Below the pieces are notes generated by a model that worked only from the letters and a program-made list of their open reading frames with translations, ran no database searches and had not been told where the DNA came from. The position numbers were made by a program, and so were the translations under genes. A DNA stretch of 64,000 bases from Candidatus Marinacidobacterium sp. GTDB taxonomy: Bacteria > Acidobacteriota > Vicinamibacteria > Marinacidobacterales > Marinacidobacteraceae. Of this stretch, positions 6,344 to 58,908 are shown one piece after another. Positions within the stretch are counted from its first letter, which is position 1. Every line of letters starts with the position of its first letter. The DNA lies in contig OZ242011.1 of assembly GCA_965204755.1 (NCBI GenBank), positions 3,289,656 through 3,353,655 on the forward strand, read 5' to 3'.

Positions 6344-6353
6344 TGCTTGAAGA

Positions 6354-10823: not shown

Positions 10824-10832
10824 CCGGAGGAG

Positions 10833-11798: not shown

Positions 11799-11865
11799 GC
11801 GGTTCGACGAGGTTTCGGCTGGCTGGCGGGCGGGAGGGCGGGCGGAGGCGGCTAGTATTGCGGAA

Positions 11866-12540: not shown

Positions 12541-12543
12541 CCC

Positions 12544-13473: not shown

Positions 13474-14056
13474 CGCCCGCGAGAAGCGGCGCTCCCTGCT
13501 ATCCGCCGGCGGCGCGGTGATCGGCGGCCTGTTGTTCTGGCACCTGGGCGGGTTCTACGGGTGGTCGCTGCCGTGGACGATCGGGGCGGTGGCAGTGGGC
13601 GCGCTCGTCCTCCGGTCGGTCGGGTCGGCGCTGTTCTTCCTCTCGCGGCATCCGTTCGCGGTCTGCGACTTCGGCCTGAGCGAGGCGGCCGTTCCCGGCG
13701 GGGCGGTGCGCTGCGCCGCGCGCATCGTCGCGCGCCGCCCGGTCGCCGCCGCCGCCGTCCGATTCTCGCTCACGGCGGAGAGCCGGGGCGCGTCGCGGGA
13801 GACGCGGCGGCTGTTCTCGGCGGAGCGGGAGGCGGCGCGGGCGGTCGCCCTCGAAGTCGGGAGGGAGTTCGAGGAGGAGGCCGACCTGCCGGTGCCCGAG
13901 GACGCGCCGTTCTCCTACCGGTCGTTCGAGGGGCGCCTGCGCTGGCTGGCGCGGGCGGAAGTCGCGGTGGAGGGTTACGGGACCTTCGCCGAGGAGATCG
14001 AGGTGCTCATGGCGCCGCCGCCTCCGGAGGACCCGGAGGGCGAAGTCGGGGAGTAG
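13449..14056 (+). CDS. hypothetical membrane protein
   Basis: Hydrophobic N-terminal segments in ORF 13373..14056. Start uncertain. Confidence 0.3.
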
Positions 14057-14934
14057 CGGTAGCCGACCGGCGCCAGGAGCCGCAGGGTGTCCGGGGAGCG
14101 GGTGATTTCAACCGGGGCGGGGGCGAAGGCGTCGCCGTCGCACTGGCAGAGCGGCGCCTCCGCCGAGTTTTCGGCCGGGACGATCCGCGCGGCCGCGGCT
14201 CGCGCCACCCGGACGCCGGGGAGGCGGGGCAGGTGGCCGAGGGCGGCTGCGGCGGCGACCGGCGGGATGGCGAAACGGTGGCGCGGGCCTACCAGCGTCG
14301 CCACGAAATCCGGGTGTTCGATCCGCGCGCCCGGAAAGAGCGGAAGCCACCGGGTGTAGCGCGACTGCGTCCCGACGCCGGCCCACGCGGCGGGAACCGG
14401 GTCGCTCCAGTCCCCGGCGCCCGCCGCCGGAGCGATCCGGACGCGAAGTTCGGGGACCGGCGACCCGAGGAAGACGCGCGCTCCCTCGACCGCCCACCGG
14501 GCGAGGCCGCCGCGCCGCTTCGTCCGCGCCCCGACCCGCCGCGCGGTCGCGGCGTCGAGCCCCACGCTGCAGATCGAGAGGAACAGGCGCTCCTCCGGCG
14601 CCGGCGCGGGGGCGCCCGTCTCCATCGGGGCCCCGGACGGAGCGGCGGGGCCGGCTCGGCGGGCGAGCCCCGGGCGGACGGCGAGGACCCGGCCGGCGAC
14701 CAGCGCCGCCACCGCGCGGGATTCCTCGGCGGGGACGCCGAGTTCGCGCGCCAGCACATTCACGGTGCCGCCGGGGAGCGGGGCGAGCGCGGTATCGCGG
14801 TTCAGGAGGCCGCGGGCGGCCTCGGCGAGGGTGCCGTCCCCGCCCCAGCAGAAAACCGCCGCCGCCCCGGCGTCCGCGTGCCGCCGGGCCAGCGCCTCCG
14901 CATGGCCGGGCGCGGTCGTGGGCGTTTCCTCCAA
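13975..14934 (-). CDS. diacylglycerol/lipid kinase catalytic-domain protein (YegS-like)
   Basis: GGDGT motif. DAGK-like homology (ARAALVWNPAAGRRKSERRLRRIREAFRRAG) continues upstream of the TTG start with no canonical start codon (see findings). Confidence 0.65.
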   Translation of the reverse strand: MEETPTTAPGHAEALARRHADAGAAAVFCWGGDGTLAEAARGLLNRDTALAPLPGGTVNVLARELGVPAEESRAVAALVAGRVLAVRPGLARRAGPAAPSGAPMETGAPAPAPEERLFLSICSVGLDAATARRVGARTKRRGGLARWAVEGARVFLGSPVPELRVRIAPAAGAGDWSDPVPAAWAGVGTQSRYTRWLPLFPGARIEHPDFVATLVGPRHRFAIPPVAAAAALGHLPRLPGVRVARAAAARIVPAENSAEAPLCQCDGDAFAPAPVEITRSPDTLRLLAPVGYRYSPTSPSGSSGGGGAMSTSISSAKVP

Positions 14935-15113
14935 GGGGATTCCGGCCCGGCGGAACGCCTCCCGGATGCGGCGGAGGCGGCGCTCGCTCTTCCGGCGCCC
15001 GGCGGCCGGGTTCCAGACGAGGGCGGCGCGGGCGCCCGCCGGGAACGCCGGCGACTCCGCCGGCGGGGGGAGGGGCGGCCCGGCGCCGGCGGGCTCGGGG
15101 GGTCGGGACGCGG

Positions 15114-27839: not shown

Positions 27840-27939
27840 GGACGCCCGCGCGGCGCGGCGGATGGATGTCCGCGCCGCCGCCGCGCCCGGTCTCGACCGC
27901 CCTCTTGCGGCCGGGCGAGGCGCGGGCTAATCTTCCTAC

Positions 27940-28013
27940 CGCACTTCCCCCCCTCGGGATCGTGTCCGGATCGGCAACCGGTTGCCTTTCTGGATACCCC
28001 GGGGGCGATTGCC
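27940..28013 (+). repeat. copy 1 of a diverged ~150-nt tandem element (candidate sRNA); conserved core
   Basis: CGCACTT-C7-TCGGGATCGTGTCCGGATC-GGCAACCGGTTGCC-TTTCTGGATACCCCGGGGGCGATT, preceded by TTGCGG-N17-CTAATC. Confidence 0.5.
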
Positions 28014-28439
28014 TTGAGATGGCGGTTGCGCAATGCGGGTTCCGCGTCATCGGGGGGTGCTTCGCGGTCTCAGCCGGTCGAGGTTGAGCCTCGCTTCGGG
28101 TTTGGCGGCGGGACGAGGGGTTGCGCGTTCGACCCCGGCTCACCCCTTCGGGTCGAGCCTCCCAACCCGAGATGGCCGCTGCGGCGGCCGACCGGCCTCC
28201 GCCCGGTTCTCCGCGCTGGCCCGGCGGAGCCGCCCGAACACGCGGTGCGCGCCGGCGGCCGCCGGCGAGCCCCCGCGGGCTTGATGTCCGGGGAGGCTCT
28301 GGATAGCATCCTCGCTCGCACTAACCCCCCCGGGGATTTCGTCTTGGGCGGCATTCGTCGTTCGTGGCGCCCCCGGGGCATTCGCGTTAAACGGGGCGCC
28401 TGCGCGTCCCGCTTCCCTGAACCCCCGCTAGTATTCCGA

Positions 28440-28510
28440 CCGCACTTAAGCCTCCCGGGATCGTGTCCAGATCCGGCAACCGGTGGCCGCTCCGGGCGCC
28501 CCGGGAGTGA
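28440..28510 (+). repeat. copy 2 of the tandem element (more diverged)
   Basis: CGCACTTAAGCCTCCCGGGATCGTGTCCAGATCCGGCAACCGGTGGCC... preceded by TAGTAT. Confidence 0.45.
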
Positions 28511-28728
28511 TCCTTCTCGTCGGGAGGTGGCCGCCGAGCGATGAGGCTCGGCGAGTCGAGCGGGTTCTGAGCGGAGTCAGGCGTTCCGGCGTTCGGCGTC
28601 GCCTCGCTCCGGCCGTCTCCGACCGTCGCTGCTCCGAGCGGTCGTACCGGTGCCCCCGCCTGCGGGGCGCGTCCGGCCCTCGGGTTCTTCCCGGTGTCGG
28701 GGCGCCAACTGGACTGGGCCCACCACCG

Positions 28729-28760
28729 TCTTGACATCGCGGAGGGTGCCGTCTACTATT
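28729..28760 (+). promoter_or_regulatory. sigma70-like promoter TTGACA-N17-TACTAT driving repeat copy 3
   Basis: Consensus -35 and near-consensus -10 with a 17-nt spacer, read directly from the sequence. Predicted TSS lands at the start of the conserved core. Confidence 0.45.
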
Positions 28761-28764
28761 CCGG

Positions 28765-28838
28765 TTGCACTTACCCCCCCCGGGATCGTGTCCTGATCGG
28801 CAACCGGTTGCCTTTCTGGATACCCCGGGGGCGATTCT
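28765..28838 (+). repeat. copy 3 of the tandem element, with a near-consensus promoter immediately upstream
   Basis: CACTTAC8GGGATCGTGTCCTGATCGGCAACCGGTTGCCTTTCTGGATACCCCGGGGGCGATT. The downstream ~80 nt are also conserved with copy 1. Confidence 0.5.
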
Positions 28839-29076
28839 CTTAACGGGGAGAGGGCGGCTGTCGGGCAAGCGGGTTCGGCGTCGTCGGGGGTGTTCTGAGC
28901 AGGCTCAGCCGGTCGGCGGCTGGGCGGCGCTGCGGATGTGGCGGTTGGGCGAGCACTTGCGAGTTCGTCCTTGGCTCGACCGGTCGGCCGGGCCGCGGAT
29001 GTGACCTCGCGGGCCGCGTCGCGCGTTCGTCTCCTCCGCTGTCTCTCATCCTGTCGCGGATTCGCGCGGAGGGCTC

Positions 29077-38284: not shown

Positions 38285-38407
38285 CAGGGGCGGTTCGCTC
38301 CCTTCCGGGCAGAACGGAGGAACGCGCGGCGGGCCCGGCTGACGGTCGCGACTGCCGGGAAGCCGCGGGGCCTGCTCGGTATGGAGAGGCCGGCTAGACT
38401 GGTTCCC

Positions 38408-38830
38408 ATGCGCCCGGAAATCGGTTCGGGGCCGTTCCGACCCGGAACCGGCCGCCCCCCGCCGTATCTCGCCGGGCGGGAGGAAGAGCAGGACCTCTTC
38501 CTGATGCTGCTCGCCGACTTGAAGCCGTTTTCGACCGGCAGCGGGACGACTACTACGCCGACCGCCACGACGAACTGGAAACTGCGGCTGCTGCGCCCGG
38601 CGCGAGAGGTCGCGGAGGCATTCGAGTCGCAACCACTCCTCTCCGGCGAGGCACTGGAGGCCGCCATCCGGCGAGGTTTCGGCGAGGACGCCGGCGACGA
38701 CCAAGTGGACGCGACGGCGCAGCAGTTCCGCCATCTCGGCTACATCTGGCGGGCCGGAACCCGTCGGCCGTGGGAACCGGGCATTCCCAGCCTGATGGAC
38801 TACATCCTCCGGGAAGTCCCCGCGCCGTAA
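38408..38830 (+). pseudogene. internally deleted, frameshifted duplicate of the downstream AAA ATPase gene
   Basis: The first ~40 codons match the ATPase N-terminus (MRPEIGSGPFRPGTGRPPPYLAGREEEQDLF vs VRSEIGGGPFQPGSGVLPPHLAGREREQDLF). The last ~80 codons match its C-terminus almost exactly (LRLLRPAREVAEAFESQ...PGIPSLMDYILREVP). The intervening ~850 nt are missing. A linker runs in a shifted frame and a 2-nt deletion restores it. Confidence 0.55.
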
Positions 38831-38943
38831 GCCGGCGAGCCGCCTCCGGAATCTCTGCGGTGCGGGAAGCGCTCCACGACCCCCGAGAACCACGAGGGAT
38901 TCGCCGCCGCTCGGCGCCGGGACTTCCGGCTAAACTGGTTCTC

Positions 38944-40065
38944 GTGCGCTCTGAAATCGGTGGGGGGCCGTTCCAGCCCGGTTCCGGCGTACTCCCGCCG
39001 CACCTCGCCGGGCGGGAGCGGGAGCAGGACCTCTTCCGGACGCTGCTCGCCCGACTCGACCGCGGCGAGGCGCCGCCCGGAGAAGTCATCCTCTACGGGC
39101 CGCGCGGCAACGGCAAGACGGCGCTCCTCGCGTGGGTCAGCGAGTTTGCGAGCGAGTCCACCGGCGTGGATGTCGAGGAACGCACGCCGTCGGAGTTCGA
39201 TTCCCCGGCCGGACTGGCCGAGTTGTTGTTGCCGAAGTCCTGGTGGAAGACCGTCGGCCCCGAGGAGGTCGGCGTTCGGGGGATCACTTGGCGCCCGGGC
39301 CGGCGATCGGCAGCCCCGACCCCCGCCGAAGTCCTCGCTCTTCGGGCCGGGAGGAAACCGTTGGTCGTGCTTCTCGACGAAGCGCACACTCTCGACCCCG
39401 AAGTCGGCCGCGCTCTCTTGAACGCGGCGCAGAAGGTCCGGCGCTCGGCGCCGTTTCTCCTGGTGTTGGCGGGAACTCCGAACCTTCGCGACCACTTGGC
39501 GTCCATGGGCGCCTCTTTCTGGAACCGCGGCCGGAAGTTGCGGATCGGACGCCTGGACGAGAGCGCCGCGGCGGAGGCGATACGGGAGCCGCTGGCGGCC
39601 GAAGACATCACCATCGCGGACGATGCGTTGGAGCACTTGGTTCGCGACAGCCACGGGTATCCGTTCTTCGTCCAACTCTGGGGCGAAGCGGTGTGGGCTC
39701 GCGCCGTCGAGACCTCACGGCAACAGGTCGTCTCCGAGGATGTGCGCGCCTGCCAAACCGTTTTCGACGAGCAGCGGGACGACTACTACGCCGACCGTCA
39801 CGACGAATTGGAAGAACTGCGGCTGCTGCGCCCGGCGCGGGCGGTCGCGGAGACCTTCGAGTCGCGTCCCGCCCTCTCCGGCGGCGAACTGGAGGCCGCC
39901 ATCCGGCGAGGTTTCGGCGAGGACGCCGGCGATGACGAAGTGAACGCGGCGGCGCAGCAGTTCCGCCATCTCGGCTACATCTGGCGGGCCGGAACCCGTC
40001 GGCTGTGGGAACCGGGCATTCCCAGCCTGATGGACTACATCCTCCGGGAGGTCCCCCCGCCATAG
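38944..40065 (+). CDS. AAA+ ATPase (AAA_16/ORC-Cdc6-like P-loop NTPase)
   Basis: ILYGPRGNGKTALL Walker A, VVLLDEAHTL Walker B. GTG start preceded by a duplicated upstream region. Confidence 0.7.
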   Translation: MRSEIGGGPFQPGSGVLPPHLAGREREQDLFRTLLARLDRGEAPPGEVILYGPRGNGKTALLAWVSEFASESTGVDVEERTPSEFDSPAGLAELLLPKSWWKTVGPEEVGVRGITWRPGRRSAAPTPAEVLALRAGRKPLVVLLDEAHTLDPEVGRALLNAAQKVRRSAPFLLVLAGTPNLRDHLASMGASFWNRGRKLRIGRLDESAAAEAIREPLAAEDITIADDALEHLVRDSHGYPFFVQLWGEAVWARAVETSRQQVVSEDVRACQTVFDEQRDDYYADRHDELEELRLLRPARAVAETFESRPALSGGELEAAIRRGFGEDAGDDEVNAAAQQFRHLGYIWRAGTRRLWEPGIPSLMDYILREVPPP

Positions 40066-40085
40066 AATTCCGGCGGGAGGCGGCG

Positions 40086-41501
40086 ATGTTGACGGGGATG
40101 CGCCTGCGGGGCTTCAAGTCGTGGAGGGATACGGGCGACATCGAGTTACGGCCGATCACCGCGTTCTTCGGCCTGAACGGTTCCGGGAAGACGAGTCTCC
40201 TGCAGGCGCTGCTGCTGCTGAAACAGACGGCGGAATCGCCGGGCCGCGGGCAGGTCTTCCACTTCGGGGACGGTCGGTCGGCGGTGGACCTCGGCGACTT
40301 CACCGATGCGGTGCATCGGCGCGATGCCGATGCCGCGCTGGGCGTTTCCCTCGATTGGACCGCGGACTCCGAGGTACGCGTTCGCGACGGCGACTTGCGC
40401 GAAGTCGCCGTCTCGGATTCCCTCGGGTTCTCGGTGGTCGCGGCGCGGGAAGGCGAGAGATCGCCGGAGACGACCGTGCGCGAGATTACTCATCGCGTCG
40501 GGAACTCCTGCTTCGGGATGCGGCGCGGGAAACGGGGTTACCGGTTGTTCGCCGATGCCGGGGAGTTTCGCTTCCGCAGGCGGCGGCGCCATGCGGAGAC
40601 TCTTCCCCCGCCGGTGTCCTGCTACAGGTTTCCGGCCGCTTCTCGCCAGGTGTTCGAGAACGCCGACTGCCTCTCCGCTCTCGAGCGTCCCCTGGAGCGG
40701 CAGTTGGACCGCCTCTACTACCTGGGGCTCTCGAGGGCGCGTCCGGAGCGACGGTATGTTTGGGTCGGCGCCCGCCCGCCGGATGCGGGGCGGTCGGGGG
40801 AGTTGGCCGTGGCGGTCCTCCTGGCGGCGCGCGCGGACGCAGACGGGATCGCGACGGAGCAGGGCGGGGACGGGCGCAGCCCGGAGGAGCAGGTGGAGCA
40901 CTGGCTGCGGGAAATGGGCCTCGTCCATACCTTCCGCGTCGCGCCGCTGGTCCCGGGACTGTTCGAAGTGCTCGTTCGCCAGACGCCGCACTCGGCGGAA
41001 GTCCCGATCACCGGTGCGGGTTTCGGGGTCGCGCAGGCGCTTCCGGTGTTGGCGCTCTGCTTCCACGCCCCCGAGGGTTCCACCATCCTCCTCGAACAGC
41101 CGGAAACCCGACTGCATCCGTCGGCCCAGTCCGCGCTCGCCGACGCGCTCCTCGACGCGCGGCGGCGCCGGGGGATCCAGTTCCTGATCGAGAGCCACAG
41201 CGAGCACTTGCTGCGGCGGCTCCAGCGGCGCGTCTCCGATGAGACTCTCTCCCACGAGGAAGTCGGGCTGTGGTATTGCGAGAACGAAGAAGGGGAGTCG
41301 TGCCTCACCGACTTGTCGCTGGATCGTTTCGGCGCCACCGGGTATTGGCCGGAGGGGCTCTTCGGAGACCAGTTCCGCGAAGTGGTCGAGATCGCCGAGA
41401 ATCGCCTGCGCCGGAGCATGGCCGAGGAAGAGAAGGAACCGGGCGCGCCCGCCTCGCCCTCGCGCCCGGAAGCGGGCGGGAGCGTGCCGGAAGCCGATTG
41501 A
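40086..41501 (+). CDS. ABC-type ATPase (AAA_21) with C-terminal DUF3696-like domain
   Basis: FFGLNGSGKTSLLQALLLL Walker A; LLEQPETRLHP D-loop; ESHSEHLL H-loop; C-terminal LWYCENEEGESCLTDLSLDRFGATGYWPEGLFGDQF. Confidence 0.7.
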   Translation: MLTGMRLRGFKSWRDTGDIELRPITAFFGLNGSGKTSLLQALLLLKQTAESPGRGQVFHFGDGRSAVDLGDFTDAVHRRDADAALGVSLDWTADSEVRVRDGDLREVAVSDSLGFSVVAAREGERSPETTVREITHRVGNSCFGMRRGKRGYRLFADAGEFRFRRRRRHAETLPPPVSCYRFPAASRQVFENADCLSALERPLERQLDRLYYLGLSRARPERRYVWVGARPPDAGRSGELAVAVLLAARADADGIATEQGGDGRSPEEQVEHWLREMGLVHTFRVAPLVPGLFEVLVRQTPHSAEVPITGAGFGVAQALPVLALCFHAPEGSTILLEQPETRLHPSAQSALADALLDARRRRGIQFLIESHSEHLLRRLQRRVSDETLSHEEVGLWYCENEEGESCLTDLSLDRFGATGYWPEGLFGDQFREVVEIAENRLRRSMAEEEKEPGAPASPSRPEAGGSVPEAD

Positions 41502-48244: not shown

Positions 48245-49315
48245 GTGCGCGACATCGCCCCGGTGCTGGACCCTTGGCTCCGGGAAGGGGGCCGGGGGGA
48301 CGGGCCGCCGCCGGCGCTCGCCACCGTGGTGGCCACCTGGGGTTCCGGGCCGCGCCGGCCGGGGGCGCGGATGACGGTGGACGCGGACTCGCGGATCACC
48401 GGCTCCGTCAGCGGCGGCTGCGTCGAGGCCAATGTGGTCGAGGCGGCGCGGCAGGTGGTGGAGACCGGCCGGCCCCGGTTGCTGAAGTTCGCCGTGTCCG
48501 ACGAGTTGGCCTGGGGGGCGGGGCTCGCCTGCGGCGGCTCGCTGAGCGTCTTCGTGGAGCCGGCGCACCGGGGCGCGCTCGCCGCCGCGCGCGAGGGGAT
48601 GGAGGCCCGGGTTCCGGTGGCCTACGCCGTGGTCACCGAGGGGGAACGCGCCGGGGAGTCCGTGGTGGCGCGGGGCGGCGGCGCTCCGTCCGTCCGCGGG
48701 TTCGCGCCCGGCTCCGACGAGCCGGGGCCGCCGGCGCCGGAGTTGGCCTCCTTCGTCGAAGCGGCGCTCGCCGCCGGGGCGCCCCGCTCCGGGGAATCCG
48801 CCGCCGGGCCGGTGTTCTGCGACCTGGTGCTGCCGCCGCCGGTGGTCGTGGTCGTCGGGGGCGTCCACATCGCCCAGGCGCTCGTCCGGCTGGCGGAGAC
48901 CGTCGGCTACCGCCCGGTGCTCTGCGACCCGCGTCCGGTGTTCGCGTCGCCGGAGCGGTTCCCCGGCGTGGAACTCGTCGCCGAGTGGCCGGAGGCGGCG
49001 TTCGCCCGCGTGGGGCTGGACGCCGGCTGCGCGGTCGCGGCGCTGACCCACGACCCGAAACTGGACGACCCGGCGCTCCGGGCGGCGCTCGAGAGCCCCG
49101 CGTTCTATGTGGGGGCGCTCGGCAGCCGGAAGACCCACGCCCGGCGGCTGGCCCGCCTCCGGGAGGCCGGGGTCGCCGAGGAGCGACTGGCGCGGCTCCG
49201 GGCGCCGATCGGGCTCCCCATCGGGGCGAGGTCGCCGCAGCAGATCGCCCTCTCGGTCATGGCGGAGATCGTGGCCGCCCGGAACGGCGCCCTCGACCGG
49301 CCCCCGTCGGCGTGA
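48245..49315 (+). CDS. XdhC/CoxF-family molybdenum cofactor insertion accessory protein
   Basis: N-terminal XdhC_CoxI motif (GSVSGGCVEANVVEAA) and C-terminal Rossmann-like VVVVGGVHIAQAL. Confidence 0.75.
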   Translation: MRDIAPVLDPWLREGGRGDGPPPALATVVATWGSGPRRPGARMTVDADSRITGSVSGGCVEANVVEAARQVVETGRPRLLKFAVSDELAWGAGLACGGSLSVFVEPAHRGALAAAREGMEARVPVAYAVVTEGERAGESVVARGGGAPSVRGFAPGSDEPGPPAPELASFVEAALAAGAPRSGESAAGPVFCDLVLPPPVVVVVGGVHIAQALVRLAETVGYRPVLCDPRPVFASPERFPGVELVAEWPEAAFARVGLDAGCAVAALTHDPKLDDPALRAALESPAFYVGALGSRKTHARRLARLREAGVAEERLARLRAPIGLPIGARSPQQIALSVMAEIVAARNGALDRPPSA

Positions 49316-49507
49316 CCGACCGGCGGCCCGCGGAGAGAGTTCGCGGAGCGCCGGCCGGCGCGAAGCGCTGCCCGGGGAGGGGCGCCGGGAGGGCGTGGCC
49401 CCCTCCCCGCGATGGACGGCGGGGGGAATCGCGCAGCGATTCGCGCCGCTGAGGTGGGCGTCGGCGAGCGCGGCGCCCGCGGCCCGGCGGGGGCGCCGGC
49501 GCTCGAA

Positions 49508-50218
49508 ATGCGGGGGGTCTCGAAGGTCCACCGGCAGGCCGACGGCTCGCCGCTGACCGTGGTGAGCGGAGTGGCCCTGGCGCTCGAGGCCGGCGAGACC
49601 GCGGCCGTCCTCGGGCGGTCCGGGAGCGGGAAGAGCACGCTGCTCCACCTCGCCGCCGGGATCGAGACCCCGACCGCCGGCGTCGTCCGGCTGGCCGGGC
49701 GCGACCTGGCCGCGCTGGGCGACCGGGAGCGCAGCCGGTTCCGGGGGCGGTCGGCGGGGCTGGTCTTCCAGTCCTTCCACCTCATCCCCTACCTGACGGC
49801 GCGGGAGAACCTGCTGCTCCCGGCGCGGATCGCCGGGACTTCGCGCCTCGCGGACGGGGAGACCGTGGAGGACGCCGCCGACCGGCTCCTCGACGCCGTC
49901 CAACTGCGTAATCGCGCCGGGGAGCCCGCCCGCCACCTCTCCGGCGGGGAGATGCAGCGCGCCGCGATCGCCCGGGCGCTGCTCCTCCGCCCGCCGCTGG
50001 TGCTGGCCGACGAGCCCACCGGCAACCTGGACGGGGCGGTCGCCGCGCCGGTGGTGGACCTCCTGTTCTCGATGGCCGAGGGGCAGGGGGCGGCGCTGCT
50101 GGTCGCCACCCACGACCCGGGCCTCGCCGGGAGTTGCCGCGTCCGCTACCGCCTCGACGACGCCTCCCTCGCCCGGCTGCCGGACGGGGAGGATCCGGCG
50201 CCGGGCGCGGCGCGGTGA
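49508..50218 (+). CDS. ABC transporter ATP-binding protein (MacB/LolD/FtsE-type)
   Basis: GRSGSGKSTLL Walker A, LSGGEMQRAAIARAL signature, LVLADEPTGNLD Walker B. Confidence 0.8.
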   Translation: MRGVSKVHRQADGSPLTVVSGVALALEAGETAAVLGRSGSGKSTLLHLAAGIETPTAGVVRLAGRDLAALGDRERSRFRGRSAGLVFQSFHLIPYLTARENLLLPARIAGTSRLADGETVEDAADRLLDAVQLRNRAGEPARHLSGGEMQRAAIARALLLRPPLVLADEPTGNLDGAVAAPVVDLLFSMAEGQGAALLVATHDPGLAGSCRVRYRLDDASLARLPDGEDPAPGAAR

Positions 50219-51522
50219 TCCGGCTCCTCCTCCGCGCCGCCCCGGCGCGGTTCCGGGCGGCGCCGGCGCTGTCGCTGCTGCCGGTGTTCGCCATCGCGCT
50301 GGGCGTGGCCGCGGTGCTGTCCATCCAACTGGTGAACCGGGCGGCGCTGGACACGCTCGACGCCGGCCTGGAAGCGGTCTCCGGGGCGAGCGACCTGCGG
50401 CTCGAAGGGGTGGTGCTGGAGCCGGGCGCGGTTCCCGACCGGGCGTGGCCGGAAACGCTCGCCGTTCCCGGCATCGGGAGCGCCTCGCCGGTCGCGCGCC
50501 TCCGGCGGGTCTCGCTCGCCGCCGGGGAGCGCCGGGCCACCGCGGAGGCCTACGGGGTGGACCTGCTCTCCACCGGGTTCGCCTTCGCCGAAGGCGGGTC
50601 GGGGGGCGGGGCGCCGACGGGCGCGGCGGCGCCGCTGTTCGACTCGGCGGCGTTCTTCGCCGGCGGGATCACCCTGCCGGCGTCCCTCGCGGCGCGCCTC
50701 GGCGTCTCGCTGGGACGGGAGGTCACCGTCTCCTCCGGGGACCGGGCCCGCGAAATGGTGGTCGCCGGGATCTACGGCGACCGGGGTTCGGGCGGCGGCG
50801 ACCGGGGTTCGAGCGGCGGCGCCGCGGGGGGAGGCCGGGGCGGGCCGGTCTTCCTCGACCTGGCCTACGCGCAGGCGCTCCGGGGCCGGGCCGGGTTGGA
50901 CCGGATCGAGATCCGCCTCGCCCCCGGCGCGGAGGCGGCGGCGGTGGCGGAGGCGCTCCGCGGGCGGTTCCCCGGCGTCCGGGTGGCCGAGCCCTCGACC
51001 CTGCGCCGGGAAGGCGCCGACCTCTTCGCCGCCTTCCGGCTGAACCTGACCGCGCTCTCCGCGGTCAGCCTGCTGGTCGGCGCGTTCCTGGTGTACGCCA
51101 GCGTCCGCGCCGGACTGGCCGCCCGGCGCCGCGAGATCGGGCTCTACCGGGCGCTCGGCGCCCCCGCCGGGAGCGTGGGCGCGGCGCTCGCCGGGGAAGT
51201 CGCGCTCGCCGCGCTGCTCGGCGGGGCGGTCGGGCTCCCGCTGGGGCTGGCCGCCGCCCGCGCCGGGCTCGACCGGGTGAGCGCCACGATGACCAACTTC
51301 TACCTCCTCGAGCGGATCGAGGAACTGGCGGTCACTCCCGGCGTCCTCACCGCTTCGCTCGCGGTCGGCCTCGCCGCCGCGCTGGCCGGCGCCTGGCCGG
51401 AGATCCGCTCGGAGATCCGCCGGCCCCCGGTCTCGCTGCTCGCCCCGGGGCGCGAGCCGCCCGGCGGCGGCCGCCGGCCCTACGCCGCCGCGGCGTTCGG
51501 CGTCTCGACTTCGACGGTTTAG
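50215..51522 (+). CDS. FtsX-family ABC permease, N-terminal fragment (gene split by IS insertion)
   Basis: TM1, a periplasmic domain and the first FtsX 3-TM bundle. The reading frame runs 18 nt into the IS left end and stops. GTG start overlaps the ATPase stop. Confidence 0.65.
   Translation: MIRLLLRAAPARFRAAPALSLLPVFAIALGVAAVLSIQLVNRAALDTLDAGLEAVSGASDLRLEGVVLEPGAVPDRAWPETLAVPGIGSASPVARLRRVSLAAGERRATAEAYGVDLLSTGFAFAEGGSGGGAPTGAAAPLFDSAAFFAGGITLPASLAARLGVSLGREVTVSSGDRAREMVVAGIYGDRGSGGGDRGSSGGAAGGGRGGPVFLDLAYAQALRGRAGLDRIEIRLAPGAEAAAVAEALRGRFPGVRVAEPSTLRREGADLFAAFRLNLTALSAVSLLVGAFLVYASVRAGLAARRREIGLYRALGAPAGSVGAALAGEVALAALLGGAVGLPLGLAAARAGLDRVSATMTNFYLLERIEELAVTPGVLTASLAVGLAAALAGAWPEIRSEIRRPPVSLLAPGREPPGGGRRPYAAAAFGVSTSTV
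50904..51504 (+). repeat. 601-bp direct repeat, copy A (target-site duplication of the IS)
   Basis: Identical to 53415..54015. Boundaries fixed by codon-by-codon comparison of the two permease fragments. Confidence 0.8.
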
Positions 51523-53414
51523 CCCGGTCTGAGACCGGGAAGTCCTTGGTGCCCTTGGGGCGGCAGCTTGGATCCGGTTTGTAGTGTGCCGTGGTATTTG
51601 GTGATGAGTAACTTACTGCTATCATTCCCGCGTGTTCGTCCGCAAGTTCCGCCGGAAGAACCGGCCCGGCGTCGGCGTCCAGATCGTCCGGTCCTTCCGC
51701 GACGCCCGCGGCCGGCCCCGGCAGGAACTGATGGTCTCCATCGGCTCCGCCCCGGAAGGCCCGGCCCTCGACGCCCTGGTCGAAGTGGCCGAGAGGAAGG
51801 TGGCCGAACTCCGGCTGGCCCGTCGGCCCACCCTGTTCCCCACCGACCTGCTGCTGCGCCAGGCGCTGGAGGCCCGCCAGGACCGGCGGACGCGCCGGGC
51901 GCGGTTGTCGGAGGTGAGCCAACTGCAGGAGGAGGCCCGCCTGACCCTGGGGGTGCACGAGGTGTTCGGCGCGCTCTGGAGCGAGGCCGGACTGGACGGG
52001 GTGTGGGGTGCGGGGCACCCGGTGTCCGGTCGGGTGTTCCGGCATGCGGTGATGCTGCGGCTGGCGGAGCCGGGCCGGAGCAAGCGGGGCCACGCGCAGG
52101 ACCCGCAGCGGAACTACGGGCTGGAGATCCCGGTGGAGAAGTTCTACCGGATGATGGACCGGCTGGACGGGGAGCGGATCGCGCGGCTCACCGCCCGGGT
52201 GGGGACGCAGGTTCGGCGGCTGCTGGGGGGCGAGGTGGAGGTGGTGTTCATGGATGTGACCACCCTTTCGTTCGCCTCGGAGCAGGAGGACGGGTTGCGG
52301 GCGAAGGGGTACAGCAAGGACCAGAAGCCGCACCGGGTGCAGGTGGTGCTGGCGCTGTTGCAGACGCGGGAGGGTTTGCCGCTGGGGTATCGGGTGTTCC
52401 CGGGGAACACGGCGGAGGTGAAGACGCTGCTTCCGTTGGTGGGGGAGTTGCGGGAGCGGTACCGGATCGGCCGGGTGGTGGTGGTGGCGGACGCGGCGAT
52501 GCTGGGGACGAAGAACCTGGAGGCGTTGACGGCGGCCGGTTTCGAGTGGGTGGTGGCGGCGAAGCTCCGCCAGTTGCGGGGGAAGGACCTGGCGGCGCTG
52601 GCGGAGCCGGAGTCTTGGGCGGCTTCGGGGGAGGCGGGGCAGCGGCTGCGGGAGCACCGGGCGGAGGAGGGGGCGCTGCGGGGGCTTCGGCTGGTGGTGC
52701 GTTACTGCCCGAAGAAGGCGGAGCGGGACGCGGGGCTCCGGGCGAAGGCGGTGAAGCAGGCGAAGAAGCGGGAGGCGTCGGGGGTGAAGGGGAAGGGGCG
52801 GGCCGCGCGCTACCTGCGGGTGCGGCGGGACGCGGTGCGGTTCGACCCGGATCTGGTGGAACGGGACGCGCGGTTCGACGGGCTCCACGGGGTGTTCACC
52901 AGCCTGGCGGACCCGCCGGCGGAGATCCGGGCGCACTACGGGGGGTTGTGGCGGATCGAGCAGGGGTTCCGGGTGCTGAAGGGCACGCTGGAAGTGCGCC
53001 CGGTGTTCCACTGGACGGAGCGGCGGGTGCGGGCGCACCTGGCGATCTGCTACGCCGCCTTCGCGCTGCTCCGGTTGCTGCGCTGGCGTTACGCCCGGGC
53101 CTACCCGGAGGCGCCGCTGAGCGAGGAGCGGCTACTGCGGGAACTGCTCCGGGTGGAGGTCTCCCACGGCTGCGACCGGGGCACGAACGAGTGGTTCTTC
53201 CTGCCCTCGAAGGCCACCCCGGAGGCGGAGCGGATCTACCGGCTGGTGGGCCTGCGACTGCCCCGGCGGGCCACGCCGGTTCCACCCCCGAGGCGACTCC
53301 GCGAAGTCGCCTGACCTCCGACACCCCACCGCCGGACTCCCCCCGGTTGTAGTGTGCCTACGAAACCAAATCCCCAACTGTCAACCACTTACAAAGCCAA
53401 ACCGTCGAAGTCAA
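51505..53414 (+). mobile_element. IS1634-family (IS4-like) insertion sequence, ~1.9 kb
   Basis: Imperfect terminal inverted repeats TCGACTTCGACGGTTTAGC (left) and GCTTTGGCTTTGTAAG...AAACCGTCGAAGTCAA (right). Single transposase ORF. Flanked by the 601-bp direct repeat. Confidence 0.8.
51632..53314 (+). CDS. IS1634-family DDE transposase
   Basis: N-terminus MFVRKFRRKNRPGVGVQIVRSFRDARG, as in IS1634 transposases. Also VFMDVTTLSF, GYSKDQKP, VVVADAAM; 560 aa. Confidence 0.8.
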   Translation: MFVRKFRRKNRPGVGVQIVRSFRDARGRPRQELMVSIGSAPEGPALDALVEVAERKVAELRLARRPTLFPTDLLLRQALEARQDRRTRRARLSEVSQLQEEARLTLGVHEVFGALWSEAGLDGVWGAGHPVSGRVFRHAVMLRLAEPGRSKRGHAQDPQRNYGLEIPVEKFYRMMDRLDGERIARLTARVGTQVRRLLGGEVEVVFMDVTTLSFASEQEDGLRAKGYSKDQKPHRVQVVLALLQTREGLPLGYRVFPGNTAEVKTLLPLVGELRERYRIGRVVVVADAAMLGTKNLEALTAAGFEWVVAAKLRQLRGKDLAALAEPESWAASGEAGQRLREHRAEEGALRGLRLVVRYCPKKAERDAGLRAKAVKQAKKREASGVKGKGRAARYLRVRRDAVRFDPDLVERDARFDGLHGVFTSLADPPAEIRAHYGGLWRIEQGFRVLKGTLEVRPVFHWTERRVRAHLAICYAAFALLRLLRWRYARAYPEAPLSEERLLRELLRVEVSHGCDRGTNEWFFLPSKATPEAERIYRLVGLRLPRRATPVPPPRRLREVA

Positions 53415-54015
53415 GATCGAGATCCGCCTCGCCCCCGGCGCGGAGGCGGCGGCGGTGGCGGAGGCGCTCCGCGGGCGGTTCCCCGGCGTCCGGGTGGCCG
53501 AGCCCTCGACCCTGCGCCGGGAAGGCGCCGACCTCTTCGCCGCCTTCCGGCTGAACCTGACCGCGCTCTCCGCGGTCAGCCTGCTGGTCGGCGCGTTCCT
53601 GGTGTACGCCAGCGTCCGCGCCGGACTGGCCGCCCGGCGCCGCGAGATCGGGCTCTACCGGGCGCTCGGCGCCCCCGCCGGGAGCGTGGGCGCGGCGCTC
53701 GCCGGGGAAGTCGCGCTCGCCGCGCTGCTCGGCGGGGCGGTCGGGCTCCCGCTGGGGCTGGCCGCCGCCCGCGCCGGGCTCGACCGGGTGAGCGCCACGA
53801 TGACCAACTTCTACCTCCTCGAGCGGATCGAGGAACTGGCGGTCACTCCCGGCGTCCTCACCGCTTCGCTCGCGGTCGGCCTCGCCGCCGCGCTGGCCGG
53901 CGCCTGGCCGGAGATCCGCTCGGAGATCCGCCGGCCCCCGGTCTCGCTGCTCGCCCCGGGGCGCGAGCCGCCCGGCGGCGGCCGCCGGCCCTACGCCGCC
54001 GCGGCGTTCGGCGTC
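53415..54015 (+). repeat. 601-bp direct repeat, copy B (target-site duplication)
   Basis: Identical to 50904..51504. Confidence 0.8.
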
Positions 54016-55362
54016 CTGCTCGTCGGCCTCTCGGCGCTGCCGCTGCTCTTTCCCGGCGAAGCGCGGTTCTCGCTCGGCGGGGGCTTCCCGGCGGCGGGGG
54101 CGCTGGTGGTCGGGGCGGCGCTCCTGCCCGCCGGGGCGCTCTCGCTGTTCGGGCCGCGCCTCCGCCGGTTCGGGCATCGCTCGGCCTTCGGCCGGGGCGC
54201 GGCGGCGGCGCTGCGGGAGCCCTCGGCGACCGCCCCGGCGGCGGCGGCGCTGGTGGTGGCGGTGACCATGCTGGTCGGGGTTACCGCGCTGGTCGCCAGT
54301 TTCCGGACGACCCTGGAGACCTGGCTCGAAGAGACGCTGGCGGCGGACATCTATGTGTCCCGGTTCGGGAACCTGGGCGGCGGCGTGGCCGAGCGGCTGC
54401 CGCTTCCGCCGGAGGCGCTCGCCGCCGTCGAGGGCGACCCGGCGGTGGAGCACCGGGACTTCCTGCGCGGCGTCCGGGTCCACCTCGCCGGCCGCCCGGT
54501 GGCGGTGAACGGGATCGAGATCCGGGTGCCGCGCTCCACCGAGCGGTTCTCGCTGGTGGGCGGCGGCGAAGCGCCGATGGAGGAGTTGGTCGAGGGGGCG
54601 GTCCTCGTCTCCGAAGTGCTGGCGCGGCGGCTGGGGCTCGCCGCCGGCGGGCGGCTGGAACTCCCGACCGCGGCGGGGCCGGTGTCCGCGCCGGTGGCCG
54701 GGGTGTACCGGGACTACGGGAACCAGACCGGGGCGCTGTTCCTCGACGGGAGGCGGCTCGACCGGCTCTACCCGCCGCCGCGCTCCCCGGACGATCCGGC
54801 GGCGCCCCCGCCGGTGCACGGGGCGGCGCTCTACCTGCGTCCCGGCGAGGAGGCGGCGGCGGTGGCGGCGCGGCTCCGCGCTGTCGTGCCGGACGGGGTC
54901 GGCGTGGTGGACCGGGGGGCGCTCCGGGGGGCCGCGGCGCGCGTCTTCGACCAGACGATGGCGGTGACGCGGCTTCTCCGCGCCTTCGCGCTCGGGATCG
55001 CGGCGCTCGGGGTGTCCGTGCTGTTGTTGACGATGGCGCGGGAGCGGGCGGCGGAGATCGCGCTGCTCCGGGCGCTCGGGGCCGACTCGGCGCAGGCGGG
55101 GGCCGGGTTCCTCGGGCGGGGGGCGCTCATCGGGCTGGCCGCGCTGGCGCTCGGCGGGAGCGCGGGCGCCCTGCTCGCGGTGCTGCTGGTCGAAGTCGTG
55201 AACCCGGCCTGGTTCGGGTGGTCGCTCCAACTGTCCTGGCCGCTGGGGCCGCTCTTCTGGCAAGGGGTGTTGGTCCTCGCGGCGGGGCTCGCCGCCGCCG
55301 CGCTGCCGGCGCGGCTGGCCGCCCGGAGCGGCGGCGCGGCGGCGCTCCGGGAGGAAGTGTGA
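53455..55362 (+). CDS. FtsX-family ABC permease, C-terminal fragment (re-starts inside duplicated segment)
   Basis: Contains the duplicated first FtsX bundle, a second periplasmic domain and a second FtsX bundle. The intact ancestral gene was about 50215..51504 joined to 54016..55362 (~870 aa, two FtsX modules). Confidence 0.65.
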   Translation: MAEALRGRFPGVRVAEPSTLRREGADLFAAFRLNLTALSAVSLLVGAFLVYASVRAGLAARRREIGLYRALGAPAGSVGAALAGEVALAALLGGAVGLPLGLAAARAGLDRVSATMTNFYLLERIEELAVTPGVLTASLAVGLAAALAGAWPEIRSEIRRPPVSLLAPGREPPGGGRRPYAAAAFGVLLVGLSALPLLFPGEARFSLGGGFPAAGALVVGAALLPAGALSLFGPRLRRFGHRSAFGRGAAAALREPSATAPAAAALVVAVTMLVGVTALVASFRTTLETWLEETLAADIYVSRFGNLGGGVAERLPLPPEALAAVEGDPAVEHRDFLRGVRVHLAGRPVAVNGIEIRVPRSTERFSLVGGGEAPMEELVEGAVLVSEVLARRLGLAAGGRLELPTAAGPVSAPVAGVYRDYGNQTGALFLDGRRLDRLYPPPRSPDDPAAPPPVHGAALYLRPGEEAAAVAARLRAVVPDGVGVVDRGALRGAAARVFDQTMAVTRLLRAFALGIAALGVSVLLLTMARERAAEIALLRALGADSAQAGAGFLGRGALIGLAALALGGSAGALLAVLLVEVVNPAWFGWSLQLSWPLGPLFWQGVLVLAAGLAAAALPARLAARSGGAAALREEV

Positions 55363-56610
55363 GGTCGGGCGGGCTCCGGCGGGCGCTGCTCGCGGGGGCG
55401 GCCGCCTGGGCGGCGGGCGCGGCGTGGGGGGCGGTTTCGCAACCCGCGGGCGGTTCGGAGTGGGCGCCGGCGGTTCGCGGCTACGACTGGGAGTTCCCCC
55501 GGGACCACTGGCGGCACGACGGGTACTCGACCGAGTGGTGGTACTTCGTGGGGTTCGCGGACGGGGCGGACGGGCGGCGGTTCTTCTACCAATTCACCCT
55601 GTTCCGGGGCGGCCTCACGCCCTCCGCGCCTGACCCCGCGCCGTCCCCGTGGGGCGCCCGCTACGCGGCGATGGGGCATGCCGCGGTCGCCGACGCCGGG
55701 ACCGGGGAGCGGGTGTTCGTCCAAGTCGCCCACCGGGAGGCGCCCGGTCTCGCGGAGTTCGGTGAGTTCGGCGGAGTCGGGGACGGGGACGGGGACGGGG
55801 AGATCGGCTCGCTGCCGGGGCCGACCGGGACCTCCGCCCGGTGGCGCCTGGAGTTCGCGGACGGGGCGTTCCGGTTCACCGCCGGGAGCGCCGCGCCGGG
55901 GTTCCTCCTCGATCTGGTGGCGGAGCCGACCAGGCCGCCGCTCTTCCACGGGGAGGGCGGCTACTCGGAGAAGTCCCCCGGCGGCGCGGCGAGCCTCTAC
56001 TACAGCCATCCCCGGCTCCGGGTGCGCGGCCGGATCGGCCTCGGGGGCTCGGCCACCGAAGTCGAGGGGGACGGCTGGCTCGACCGGGAGTTCGGGACCG
56101 CCTGGCTCACGCCGGAGCAGGCGGGGTGGGACTGGTTCGGGCTGACCCTCGACGACGGGCGCGACCTGATGCTCTACCTGCTGCGGACGGCGGACGGGCG
56201 GCTCTCCCACGCCGACGGGACCCTGCGGGACGCGGGCGGGGAGGTCCGTCGGATCGCCGCCGGCGGGATGTCCGTCGAAGCCCTCTCGTCCTTCACGCCG
56301 CCGGAACTCGGGCGGGAGGGCCGCCCCTACCCGGCGCGGTGGCGCGTCCGCATCCCGGCGGAGGGGCTCGACCTCCTGGTGGAACCCCTCCTCGCCGATC
56401 AGGAGAACCGCCGGGAGAACCGCCGGGGGCCGGCGATGCCCGGCCCGGACATCCCCTACTGGGAGGGCGCAGTGCGCGTCGGCAGGGCCGGGGAGGAGGC
56501 GGGTCGGGGCTTCGTGGAACTCACCGGCTACCGCCGCCCCTTCCGCGCACCCGGGCTCGCCCCGCCGTCGGCGGGCCGCCGAGACGACTCGCGGCCCGCC
56601 GGCCGGGTCT
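55359..56610 (+). CDS. AttH-like secreted lipocalin/hydrolase-like protein (CrtC/hydroxyneurosporene-synthase-like fold); 3' end undefined
   Basis: DWEFPRDHWRHDGYSTEWWYFVGF...FFYQFTLFR motif. GTG start overlaps the permease stop (GTGA). The frame has no stop until 57503, so the end is set where the convergent membrane-protein gene ends. Confidence 0.55.
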
Positions 56611-57389
56611 CACATCCCGGTCAGGCGCCCCGCGATCTTGTAGCACCGGAAGATGATGTGCCAGGACACCGCGACCACCACCAGCCAGAACACCCAGTAG
56701 TAGTCGCCGGGGATCAGGTAGTTGCCCCCGAAGAACGGGGTGGCGTGCTCGTTCGCCATCGCCCACAGGAGCGGCAGCGACATGTAGGTGTTGTGCTTCG
56801 ACCGCAGGCCGGCGAGGGCCGGGTCCGCCGGATCCGGGGCCTTGCCCGCCTTGACCGCCGCGATGATCCGCTGCTGCGCCGGCCAGATGCGGAACCAGAC
56901 ATTGAAGGCCATCATCGTCCCGAACATGGCGCCGGTGTGGATCAGCACCGCCCGGGGCTGGAACCCGCCCCAGTACACATAGAGCGCGACGGTGAGCGAG
57001 AGCATCGCGAAGGACACGACGGTCGCCGCCCGCACATTCGAGGCGAGCGCGCTCTTCCACAGGCCGTCGTAGGAGAACACCGCGGTGAAGGTCAGGACGA
57101 CCATGAAGATCGCCCCGAGGCCCCACTCTTCGCCCAGGTCGAGCGTCAGGCCGCCGTGGTAGAAGACGAGGAGGACCAGCAGGAACCCGGTGATCCAGGT
57201 CCAGGCCGCGCCCCAGCGGAACCAGTAGAGCGCCCGGGGCATGAGTTCGGGCACCACCTTCTGCTTGGTGGGCCCGTCCAACTTCGCGGCCATCTGGCCG
57301 TTGACGAAGTTGAAGAAGTAGAGGTGGCCGATCCACAGGATCCCCACGAAGATGTGGAGCCAGCGGATCACGAAGGTCAGGCCGTCCAT
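56610..57389 (-). CDS. integral membrane protein (DUF989 / urate hydroxylase PuuD N-terminal-like; family assignment tentative)
   Basis: 259 aa, strongly hydrophobic and W/F/Y-rich (RWLHIFVGILWIGHLYFFNFV), unlike the GC-artefact ORFs. Confidence 0.65.
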   Translation of the reverse strand: MDGLTFVIRWLHIFVGILWIGHLYFFNFVNGQMAAKLDGPTKQKVVPELMPRALYWFRWGAAWTWITGFLLVLLVFYHGGLTLDLGEEWGLGAIFMVVLTFTAVFSYDGLWKSALASNVRAATVVSFAMLSLTVALYVYWGGFQPRAVLIHTGAMFGTMMAFNVWFRIWPAQQRIIAAVKAGKAPDPADPALAGLRSKHNTYMSLPLLWAMANEHATPFFGGNYLIPGDYYWVFWLVVVAVSWHIIFRCYKIAGRLTGM

Positions 57390-57435
57390 GCTCTCGGTTC
57401 CTTCCCGGGCGCGCCGGGGCGCCCGATCTCCGATT

Positions 57436-58908
57436 CTACCGACGGGGGGCGGCGGGAGACGCCGCGCCGCCGCTCGACCGGAGGGAGCCGACGACGGCGA
57501 TGAGGGTGTTCAGCGCGGCGCCGAAGAGCCCGGCGTGGATCCCGAAGAGGCGCCCGTGGCCGGCGAGGATCAGCCCCGCCGCCAGCGCGGTTCCGGCGAG
57601 CAGGCCCCAAAACGCCGCGTCCGCCCGCAGCCTCGGCCAGGCCAGCCCCAGGAAGAAGACCGGCGCGGCCTGCACCAGCAGGTCCATCTTGAGTTCGAGG
57701 AGCCCCCAGAGGCTGATCCGGGGGGTGAGCGCGACCCCGGCGAGGACCGTCATCACCGCGATCGCGGTCCACTTCCCGATCCGGGTGATGCGCTCTTCGG
57801 CGGCTTCCCGCCCGCCGCGCCGCAGGAAGGGGGCGAGGAAGTCCTTCGCCAGCATCGAGGAGAGCGTGAGCAGCACCGAGTCGGCGGTGGACATGATCGC
57901 GGCGACCACGCCGACCACGGTGAGCACGCCGAGCCCGAACATCCAGCCGGACTCGTCCGCCCACCCGGCGAGGAGCGCCGGGAGCACCCGGTCCGCCGCC
58001 ACCCCTTCGAGCCCGCCCAGCCGGGGCAGGGCCAGGATCCCGACGAAGAACACCGGCAGGGTGGTGAAGAAGGGCAGGAACGCCATCGCCGCCACCGCCT
58101 TCCGCAGCGCCGGGGTTCCCGAGGCGGCGAAGATGCGCTGGATCGCCTGCGGATAGACCGCCCCGGAGAAGCCGATGAGCAGGACGGTGCTGGCCCAGCC
58201 GGAGAGGACCGGCCCCGAGGGGCGGAGCGCCTTCGCCGGCTCGTTGGCCAGGATCCACTCCGCGGCCTCCCCCAGGTCGTGGCCGGTGAAGAGCGCCGCG
58301 CCGAGCAGCCCGAAGAGGCCGACCGCGAGCAGGATCCCCTGCAGGCAGTCCGTCCAGGCGACGGCGCGGAGGCCGCCCAGCAGTTCGTAGCCGAGGATGG
58401 CGGCGGCGAGCACCGCCACGCCGGCGGCGTAGGGGACTTCGCCGCCGGAGAGCCCTTCCACCACATGCCCCATCGCCATGAGTTGGGCGAGCAGGTAGTT
58501 GACGATCGCCGCGGTCATGATCGCCGTCGCCGCCAGGGTGAGCCGGCGGGAGCGGAACCGCCAGTCGAGGTAGTCCGCCGGCGTGACGAAGCCGCGCCGC
58601 TCCGAGGCGGCCCGGAGGCGGGGGGCCATCACCAGATAGGCGGCGACGATGGCGAGCATGAACCCGACGCTCATCACCCAGGGGTAGCCGACGCGGTAGG
58701 CCTCGCCGGGGTAGCCGACCAGCGTGTTCCCGCTGTACTGGGTGGCGTAGAGCGTGAACAGCAGGACCACGCCGCCGAGGCTGCGGCCGGCGAGGTAGAA
58801 GTCGGCGAGCGACTCCGACTTCCGGGCGGCGCGCGCCCGGAGGCCGAGGAACGCCAGGACCGCGAGGTAGCCGGCGATCCCGGCCACCGCGGCCGCGGTG
58901 AAACTCAC
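57436..58908 (-). CDS. sodium:solute symporter family (SSF) transporter
   Basis: About 13 TM segments with SSF-like motifs (GRSLGGVVLLFTLYATQYSGNTLVGYPG). GTG start overlaps the DUF3311 stop. Confidence 0.75.
   Translation of the reverse strand: MSFTAAAVAGIAGYLAVLAFLGLRARAARKSESLADFYLAGRSLGGVVLLFTLYATQYSGNTLVGYPGEAYRVGYPWVMSVGFMLAIVAAYLVMAPRLRAASERRGFVTPADYLDWRFRSRRLTLAATAIMTAAIVNYLLAQLMAMGHVVEGLSGGEVPYAAGVAVLAAAILGYELLGGLRAVAWTDCLQGILLAVGLFGLLGAALFTGHDLGEAAEWILANEPAKALRPSGPVLSGWASTVLLIGFSGAVYPQAIQRIFAASGTPALRKAVAAMAFLPFFTTLPVFFVGILALPRLGGLEGVAADRVLPALLAGWADESGWMFGLGVLTVVGVVAAIMSTADSVLLTLSSMLAKDFLAPFLRRGGREAAEERITRIGKWTAIAVMTVLAGVALTPRISLWGLLELKMDLLVQAAPVFFLGLAWPRLRADAAFWGLLAGTALAAGLILAGHGRLFGIHAGLFGAALNTLIAVVGSLRSSGGAASPAAPRR

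Follow-up and report, generated by a model that had tools for sequence, protein, structure and literature searches.

Organization of the locus

The sequence analysed here, referred to as the window, is a stretch of 64,000 nucleotides (nt) from Candidatus Marinacidobacterium sp. (contig OZ242011.1, positions 3,289,656 to 3,353,655 of the forward strand), with a GC content of 72%. It contains a gene for an FtsX-type permease that is interrupted by an insertion sequence (IS), on both sides of which the same part of the gene is present. The two copies of this segment, target-site duplication copy 1 (50904..51504) and copy 2 (53415..54015), constitute an exact direct repeat of 601 bp (0/601 mismatches, spacing of 2511 bp), which is inextensible by even one base at either end. 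An exact repeat of this length is too long to be attributed to chance. The IS, of the IS1634 family, occupies the 1910 bp delimited by the repeat copies (51505..53414, + strand), which are flush with both of its termini. Neither a second copy of the IS nor a further copy of the 601-bp repeat is present elsewhere within the window.

The IS is bounded by inverted repeats of 19 bp that match at 17 of 19 positions. The left one reads TCGACTTCGACGGTTTAGC (51505..51523, + strand) and contains the GACTTCGACGG core conserved at the ends of relatives; the right one reads TTGACTTCGACGGTTTGGC as the reverse complement (53396..53414, - strand). The only coding-like open reading frame (ORF) of the IS encodes an intact transposase of 560 amino acids (aa) (51632..53314, + strand), with a GC content at third codon positions of 0.94, as in the real genes of the window; the numerous spurious ORFs across the IS are expected at the GC content of the window. 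Directly inward of the left inverted repeat lies a perfect hairpin, CCCGGTC-TGA-GACCGGG (51524-51540), and the direct repeat GGTT(T)GTAGTGTGCC occurs subterminally near both IS ends (51567-51581 and 53346-53359). These could be elements for transposase binding or for blocking read-through.

The permease gene is present as two overlapping fragments. The N-terminal fragment (50215..51522, + strand, 435 aa; Pfam MacB_PCD and FtsX) comprises the first transmembrane (TM) segment, the MacB periplasmic core domain and TM2-TM4, followed by five IS-encoded residues (STSTV); its TAG stop codon lies inside the left inverted repeat of the IS. The C-terminal fragment (53455..55362, + strand; two Pfam FtsX stretches) has 635 aa if translated from the GTG at 53455, which is preceded by GGAGG 8 nt upstream. 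It is devoid of TM1 and of most of periplasmic domain 1, starts with an arginine-rich stretch of 33 residues, and retains ~27 residues from the end of that domain, followed by TM2-TM7, the second periplasmic domain and TM8-TM10. The duplicated permease residues, 231-430, span TM2-TM4 and extend into the start of TM5. An earlier inspection of the letters and translations (the sequence-only reading) had assigned a copy of the first FtsX bundle to each fragment; according to Pfam and hydropathy this is correct for TM2-TM4, which occur in both fragments together with the FtsX domain of the first module.

Transposase and family assignment

The transposase scores 319.5 bits against the NCBIfam equivalog model NF033559 (transpos_IS1634), for which the curated cutoff is 100 bits, and the match covers profile positions 33-481 of 483. 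Against all other IS family models its scores are far under the respective cutoffs. The protein contains the DDE_Tnp_1 catalytic domain (Pfam PF01609), with Asp208, Asp287 and Glu443 as candidate catalytic residues; all three are invariant among 11 aligned sequences (the transposase and ten homologues with identities as low as 38%). The spacer between Asp287 and Glu443 is long (156 aa). Glu443 is part of the motif Y436-x2-L439-x3-E443-x6-K450, in which Lys450 is also invariant and the arginine found in the IS4 'YREK' signature is missing; a YREK-like motif without arginine is typical of most IS1634-family members (De Palmenaer et al., PMC2266710). The size of 1910 bp lies within the 1500-2000 bp given for the family (PMC2266710), and the single transposase ORF and the terminal inverted repeats agree with it as well.

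The element is a member of the IS1634 family. Both the family and the structure proposed in the sequence-only reading, an IS of 1910 bp with a single transposase between exact 601-bp repeats, were confirmed, the former by the profile score and the latter by sequence comparison. The transposase matches, at 98% identity, a cluster of 36 sequences with the same length of 560 aa, so the element appears to be intact. In the GTDB representative genomes the nearest transposase matches are at most 56% identical. A scan of the JGI metagenomes for exact matches to the left end of the IS gave no match, nor did exact-protein look-ups with the window's transposase and C-terminal permease fragment; further copies of the IS were reached via members of the protein cluster, in related metagenome scaffolds.

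The uninterrupted permease gene in relatives

Removal of the IS and one copy of the repeat restores an uninterrupted ORF of 878 aa that starts at the GTG at 50215. Its product is 98% identical, across 100% of the length, to another permease of 878 aa (P0001), and more full-length relatives are found at 91-97% identity. The restored gene encodes a MacB/FtsX-type two-module ATP-binding cassette (ABC) permease with a LolD/MacB-type ATPase partner: its domains, like those of P0001, are PF12704, PF02687, a weak second PF12704 and PF02687, with PF00005 in the adjoining ATPase, and its hydropathy profile reveals ten TM segments, arranged 4+2+4.

Two contigs, L050 and L051 (~96% nt identity to the window), carry the gene for P0001. 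The gene order is common to all three and includes, in sequence, a CoxE-like VWA gene, XdhC, the ABC ATPase, the permease, the AttH-like gene and, on the opposite strand, Urate_ox_N. Window positions 49444-51504 align with 9228-11290 of L050, and 53415-57724 with 10690-14988, and both repeat copies of the window consequently map onto one segment of L050 (10690-11290); the counterpart in L051 is 4472-5072. The segment is collinear and 601 bp long in both contigs, with 15 differences from the window repeat in 601 positions (97.5% identity), and no IS is present in L050 or L051. The duplication of the target, as postulated in the sequence-only reading, is thereby substantiated, since the segment exists in single copy and without the IS at the orthologous locus of both contigs. 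The 601-bp duplication without an IS, an arrangement named in that reading as contrary evidence, was not found in the relatives compared.

Within the permease cluster (90% identity, 17 members), 13 of the 15 members listed have 871-878 aa. The sole pair of 435 and 635 aa among the members listed is P0247 and P0254, identical to the window's N- and C-terminal fragments, respectively; both are encoded on one contig of 3,975,858 bp, which is evidently the genome of the window. In the data available, the insertion is private to this genome. With 0 differences in 601 positions between the two repeat copies, the event is recent relative to strain divergence.

A homologue of 635 aa from a related metagenome scaffold (P0007) was considered as a second genome with the same split and ruled out. 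In this scaffold (L049) a gap of 100 N lies exactly there (1110-1209) and makes the gene caller yield a 635-aa fragment, the length of which coincides with that of the C-terminal fragment fortuitously. The case illustrates a trap in the inference of shared insertions from protein length.

Length of the duplication across copies and relatives

At other loci, in related metagenome scaffolds, the same IS recurs in copies of 1909-1913 bp with 97.2-99.8% nt identity. Exact and flush flanking repeats of 134 bp (L052), 181 bp (L053) and 89 bp (L055) accompany three of them, and repeats of 4-7 bp another two (L054 and L056); one further copy has a flank cut by the contig end (L057). Long flush repeats are hence present at four of the six assessable copies, window included. 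The 134-bp duplication of L052 (4740-4873 and 6783-6916) spans an entire tRNA-Ser(TGA) gene, which is intact on both sides of the IS and adjoins the seryl-tRNA synthetase gene.

More distant relatives display the same behaviour. Of two relatives with ~57% aa identity, one has a flush repeat of 99 bp and the other one of at least 31 bp. Some 20 copies of an element with ~45% aa identity are present in OZ220707.1, a complete Rhodothermales chromosome; 14 of them are uninterrupted, with repeats of 33, 47, 78, 110, 117, 285, 314, 317, 383, 390, 390, 406, 651 and 803 bp. The repeats of all 14 are flush and locus-specific, and at the interrupted copies the outer ends still carry repeats of 22-101 bp. 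In Dadabacteria, other Rhodothermales and a metagenome-assembled genome of Flavobacteriaceae the repeats measure 23-162 bp, with one copy flanked by 5 bp (ATAAA). Overall, the relatives at 45-57% aa identity share conserved CYTGACTTCGACGG ends and flush repeats of 5 to 803 bp, and the terminal core C(C/T)TGACTTCGACGG is common to all relatives examined. Long and variable duplications are thus the normal outcome in this IS clade, and the 601 bp of the window fall within the clade's range.

A related IS (57% aa identity to the window's transposase) in scaffold L059 presents a separate case. A repeat of ~1.27 kb (2610-3875 and 5825-7096) is flush with both of its ends, covers two Cache-domain genes and is 94% identical between its copies, and the transposase is identical to that of the copy in L058. 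The structure could represent either an ancient duplication in which the IS has been homogenised or the result of recombination.

The sequence-only reading had ascribed variable duplication lengths to such elements and had proposed a search for other copies with their duplications; this was carried out, and the lengths do differ from copy to copy, both for the same IS and among its relatives. It had also regarded long duplications as a hallmark of IS1634-type elements, which is appropriate for this kind of element and too strong for the family. The typical IS1634-family duplication is 5-6 bp long and located in AT-rich tracts, and only two members, IS1549 and IS1634, are described as producing long repeats whose size, 8-514 bp, varies from copy to copy (PMC2266710); the duplications of IS4 elements are fixed at 8-13 bp (PMC2266710). 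With 601 bp here, and with 651 and 803 bp among the relatives, this range is surpassed, and the later papers found report neither a larger value nor a mechanism. The findings extend a known behaviour and do not represent a new kind of behaviour; the clade that shares it was previously undescribed.

The exact boundary between IS and target depends on one base at each end. A C immediately outside the left end and a G immediately outside the right end are present at 14 of 14 junctions of this IS (window and L052-L057), and 12 of these junctions have TC as the outside dinucleotide (GA at the right end). This flanking C/G reflects either a strict target preference or one extra IS base per end, and the IS could accordingly have 1912 bp with a duplication of 599 bp, which gives a range of 599-601 bp for the duplication in the window. 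The terminal consensus of the family, C-----YT, is matched by CTCGACTT and CTTGACTT only when the flanking C/G is counted as IS, and is not matched if the element starts with TCGAC. When these bases are so counted, the repeats of the short-repeat copies become perfect, at 4 bp in L056 and 5 bp in L054. The short-repeat copies and the family consensus thus favour the assignment of the flanking bases to the IS. The same assignment creates a one-base match of the IS end to the target on either side in all four long-repeat copies (8/8), a set of coincidences that favours leaving these bases out of the IS; the OZ220707.1 elements show no such excess of one-base junction identity.

Origin of the duplication

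Very probably, an IS1634-family element transposed into the first half of a gene for an 878-aa, 10-TM two-module FtsX permease and duplicated its target upon doing so. An active IS of 1910-1912 bp with one DDE transposase would have inserted into the permease gene, with its two 3' ends joined to opposite target strands ~600 bp apart in a 5' stagger. The gaps would then have been filled by host repair synthesis, by which 599-601 bp were copied onto both sides; a fill-in over 600 bp would need strand displacement or the help of replication. The outcome would be the split gene, with an N-terminal fragment of 435 aa that stops inside the IS and a possible C-terminal fragment of 635 aa, and the 601-bp repeats would permit precise loss of the IS through homologous recombination.

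Several points weigh against this interpretation. The repeat-IS-repeat structure rests on the assembly. The staggered cut is a step that we infer, and for the long repeats of the published elements, IS1634 and IS1549, there is no mechanistic model either (PMC2266710). Moreover, one base per junction is ambiguous between IS and target in all four long-repeat copies, which simple staggered cutting does not predict. As to the consequence for the permease, the GGAGG-spaced GTG, transcription of the transposase gene in the direction of the operon and the lack of a predicted terminator would permit expression of the C-terminal fragment.

A two-step origin, in which two co-oriented copies of the IS inserted independently ~600 bp apart on sister chromosomes with short duplications and then recombined with each other, would generate a product of identical appearance, a segment-IS-segment structure with the repeat flush with both ends. 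Short duplications do happen, as two copies of the same IS have repeats of 4-7 bp, and in L059 a ~1.27-kb repeat with no more than 94% identity flanks an IS that has its transposase sequence in common with another copy, which hints at a more complex history for some long repeats. The frequency of the pattern nevertheless makes this route improbable. Long flush repeats are the rule, both among the copies of this IS (4/6) and in OZ220707.1 (14 uninterrupted copies and several interrupted ones), and each long-repeat copy would require two nearby co-oriented insertions followed by an exchange. In addition, PMC2266710 cites the original IS1549 paper under a title according to which the repeats form "upon insertion".

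Slightly less probable still is an artefact of assembly, such as a mis-join of population variants or a collapsed or expanded repeat, with a simple insertion or none in the real genome. The sequence probably derives from a metagenome-derived chromosome, the structure is taken from the assembly, and copies of this IS often appear as isolated contigs of ~1.9 kb in short-read data. Against this, both permease fragments lie on the 3,975,858-bp contig, which implies long reads able to span the 3.1-kb structure, the same architecture recurs with different repeat lengths in many independent assemblies made with differing technologies, and both junctions are base-exact against conserved IS termini.

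An earlier tandem duplication inside the permease gene, with later entry of the IS into its junction, is conceivable given the two related FtsX modules and a weak 40-nt similarity at 54841-54880, but it is hardly credible, as the relatives at 91-98% identity all have 865-878 aa without it, L050 and L051 hold the segment once, the two copies in the window show no difference from each other but 15 in 601 positions from the orthologue, and the edges of the IS fall exactly on those of the repeat.

Fate of the permease and adjoining genes

Target duplication by transposition, the preferred interpretation, leaves the fate of the permease to be considered. Consensus scans of 49200-55500 detected neither a sigma-70 promoter nor an intrinsic terminator, and the transposase gene is co-directional with the operon. 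Together with the GGAGG-spaced GTG, these features make expression of the C-terminal fragment by read-through possible. The arginine-rich N-terminal tail of this fragment would have to be exported across the membrane for the correct orientation, which makes function as a split protein unlikely compared with inactivation. Judging from these features, the permease has probably been inactivated and does not work in two pieces.

The ABC transporter ATP-binding subunit (LolD/MacB-type; 49412..50218, + strand; Pfam ABC_tran, PF00005, 5e-31) is encoded immediately upstream. Its gene is collinear with those of L050 and L051 (96.5% nt identity), and its stop codon overlaps the permease start as GTGA. 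In the intergenic region between XdhC and the ATPase, ~110 bp (49344-49443) are without counterpart in L050 and L051, where the spacer is much shorter.

Downstream of the permease lies the gene for an AttH-like lipocalin (55359..57503, + strand; Pfam CrtC and Lipocalin_9 at residues 58-391), the start of which overlaps the permease stop. A deletion of 1 nt is located in its 3' tail, near 56617 (GGCCGGG-TCTCAC in the window, GGCCGGGCACTCAC in L050 and L051). It sits past the conserved ...FVELTGY end and abolishes the stop codon of the relatives (428 aa in L050), and the frame (56590-57503) stays open for ~900 nt further, to 57503, antisense to the Urate_ox_N gene. The deletion could be a true variant or a homopolymer sequencing error. 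The sequence-only reading had considered the ATPase, AttH-like and permease genes otherwise intact; this applies to the ATPase and has to be amended for the AttH-like gene, which has lost its usual stop and retains both lipocalin domains.

Other features of the window

The region at 38381-40065 contains a partial tandem duplicate, in which 38522-38829 and 39755-40064 are 92% identical. An ORF of 149 aa within it is an internally deleted copy of the adjoining gene for a P-loop ATPase of 431 aa, and the next ORF (40005-41501), which synteny with L050 identifies as an AAA_15/SMC_N-type ATPase gene, begins with the same 15 residues. The neighbours include a 1093-aa SNF2/PLD-like gene and HicB, and the region may be a defence island. 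At 27896-28841, three copies of a motif of 46-120 nt (...TATTCCGACCGCACTT...GGGATCGTGTCC.GATC), 80-83% identical, are spaced by 325-501 bp.

Significance

In annotation, the locus is best treated as an ABC permease gene recently disrupted by an IS and not as two real paralogous permease genes. A behaviour published for two elements of the IS1634 family is common in a clade found in Acidobacteriota-like bacteria, Rhodothermales, Dadabacteria and Flavobacteriaceae. Such insertions can duplicate small genes or protein modules and should be unusually reversible, which bears on annotation, the calling of pseudogenes and repeat-aware assembly. The value of the finding lies mainly in correct annotation and in a comparative dataset that bears on the mechanism of transposition.

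There is also an outside chance that the long target duplications of this clade drive the duplication of genes and domains and serve as a reversible switch, and are not mere debris. The duplication of a three-helix membrane module of 200 residues in the window and of a whole tRNA-Ser gene in L052 would be in line with this idea. RecA-dependent precise excision via the 601-bp repeats should be possible and would restore the permease. With its dozens of insertions in complete chromosomes and duplications of 5 to 803 bp, the clade could in addition become the first usable dataset on how a DDE transposase joins two ends to sites hundreds of bp apart.

Comparison with known systems

The element most closely resembles IS1634 from Mycoplasma mycoides subsp. 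mycoides SC and IS1549 from Mycobacterium smegmatis. By NCBIfam profile it belongs to the same transposase family, it shares with them one long ORF for a DDE transposase, a size of 1.5-2 kb and terminal inverted repeats, and its direct repeats likewise vary from copy to copy, up to hundreds of bp. It differs in its host, an uncultured bacterium with a GC content of 72% in the window, which named matches at 56% identity place probably in the Acidobacteriota, and in that the long repeats occur throughout a clade whose CYTGACTTCGACGG termini are conserved and not in single elements only.

With typical elements of the IS1634 and IS4 families it has the DDE_Tnp_1 catalytic domain in common. The Y-x2-x-x3-E-x6-K motif without arginine is that of most IS1634-family members, and the ends would fit C-----YT, the consensus of the family, on the assumption that the flanking C is part of the IS. 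In contrast to the fixed duplications of typical IS1634 (5-6 bp) and IS4 (8-13 bp) elements, those of this IS range from 4-7 bp up to ~600 bp. The arrangement also resembles IS-mediated tandem duplication, a product of recombination between two IS copies, in that a segment of the host is duplicated with an IS at the junction. It is distinguished by a single IS copy, by a repeat that is flush with both ends and by the occurrence of the pattern at nearly every copy.

The restored permease is comparable to those of Agrobacterium attEFGH-like clusters and of YbbP/ADOP-like architecture, with MacB_PCD-FtsX at one end, FtsX at the other and 4+2+4 TM segments, and as in the attEFGH-like clusters its gene is placed between those of a LolD-like ATPase and an AttH/CrtC-lipocalin. 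Unlike the named ADOP and YbbP subfamilies, it scores far under the cutoffs of the respective models (the two fragments were scored: 24.5 and 33.2 bits for ADOP TIGR03434, cutoff 622; ~20 bits for YbbP NF041854, cutoff 999) and is a generic member of the fold.

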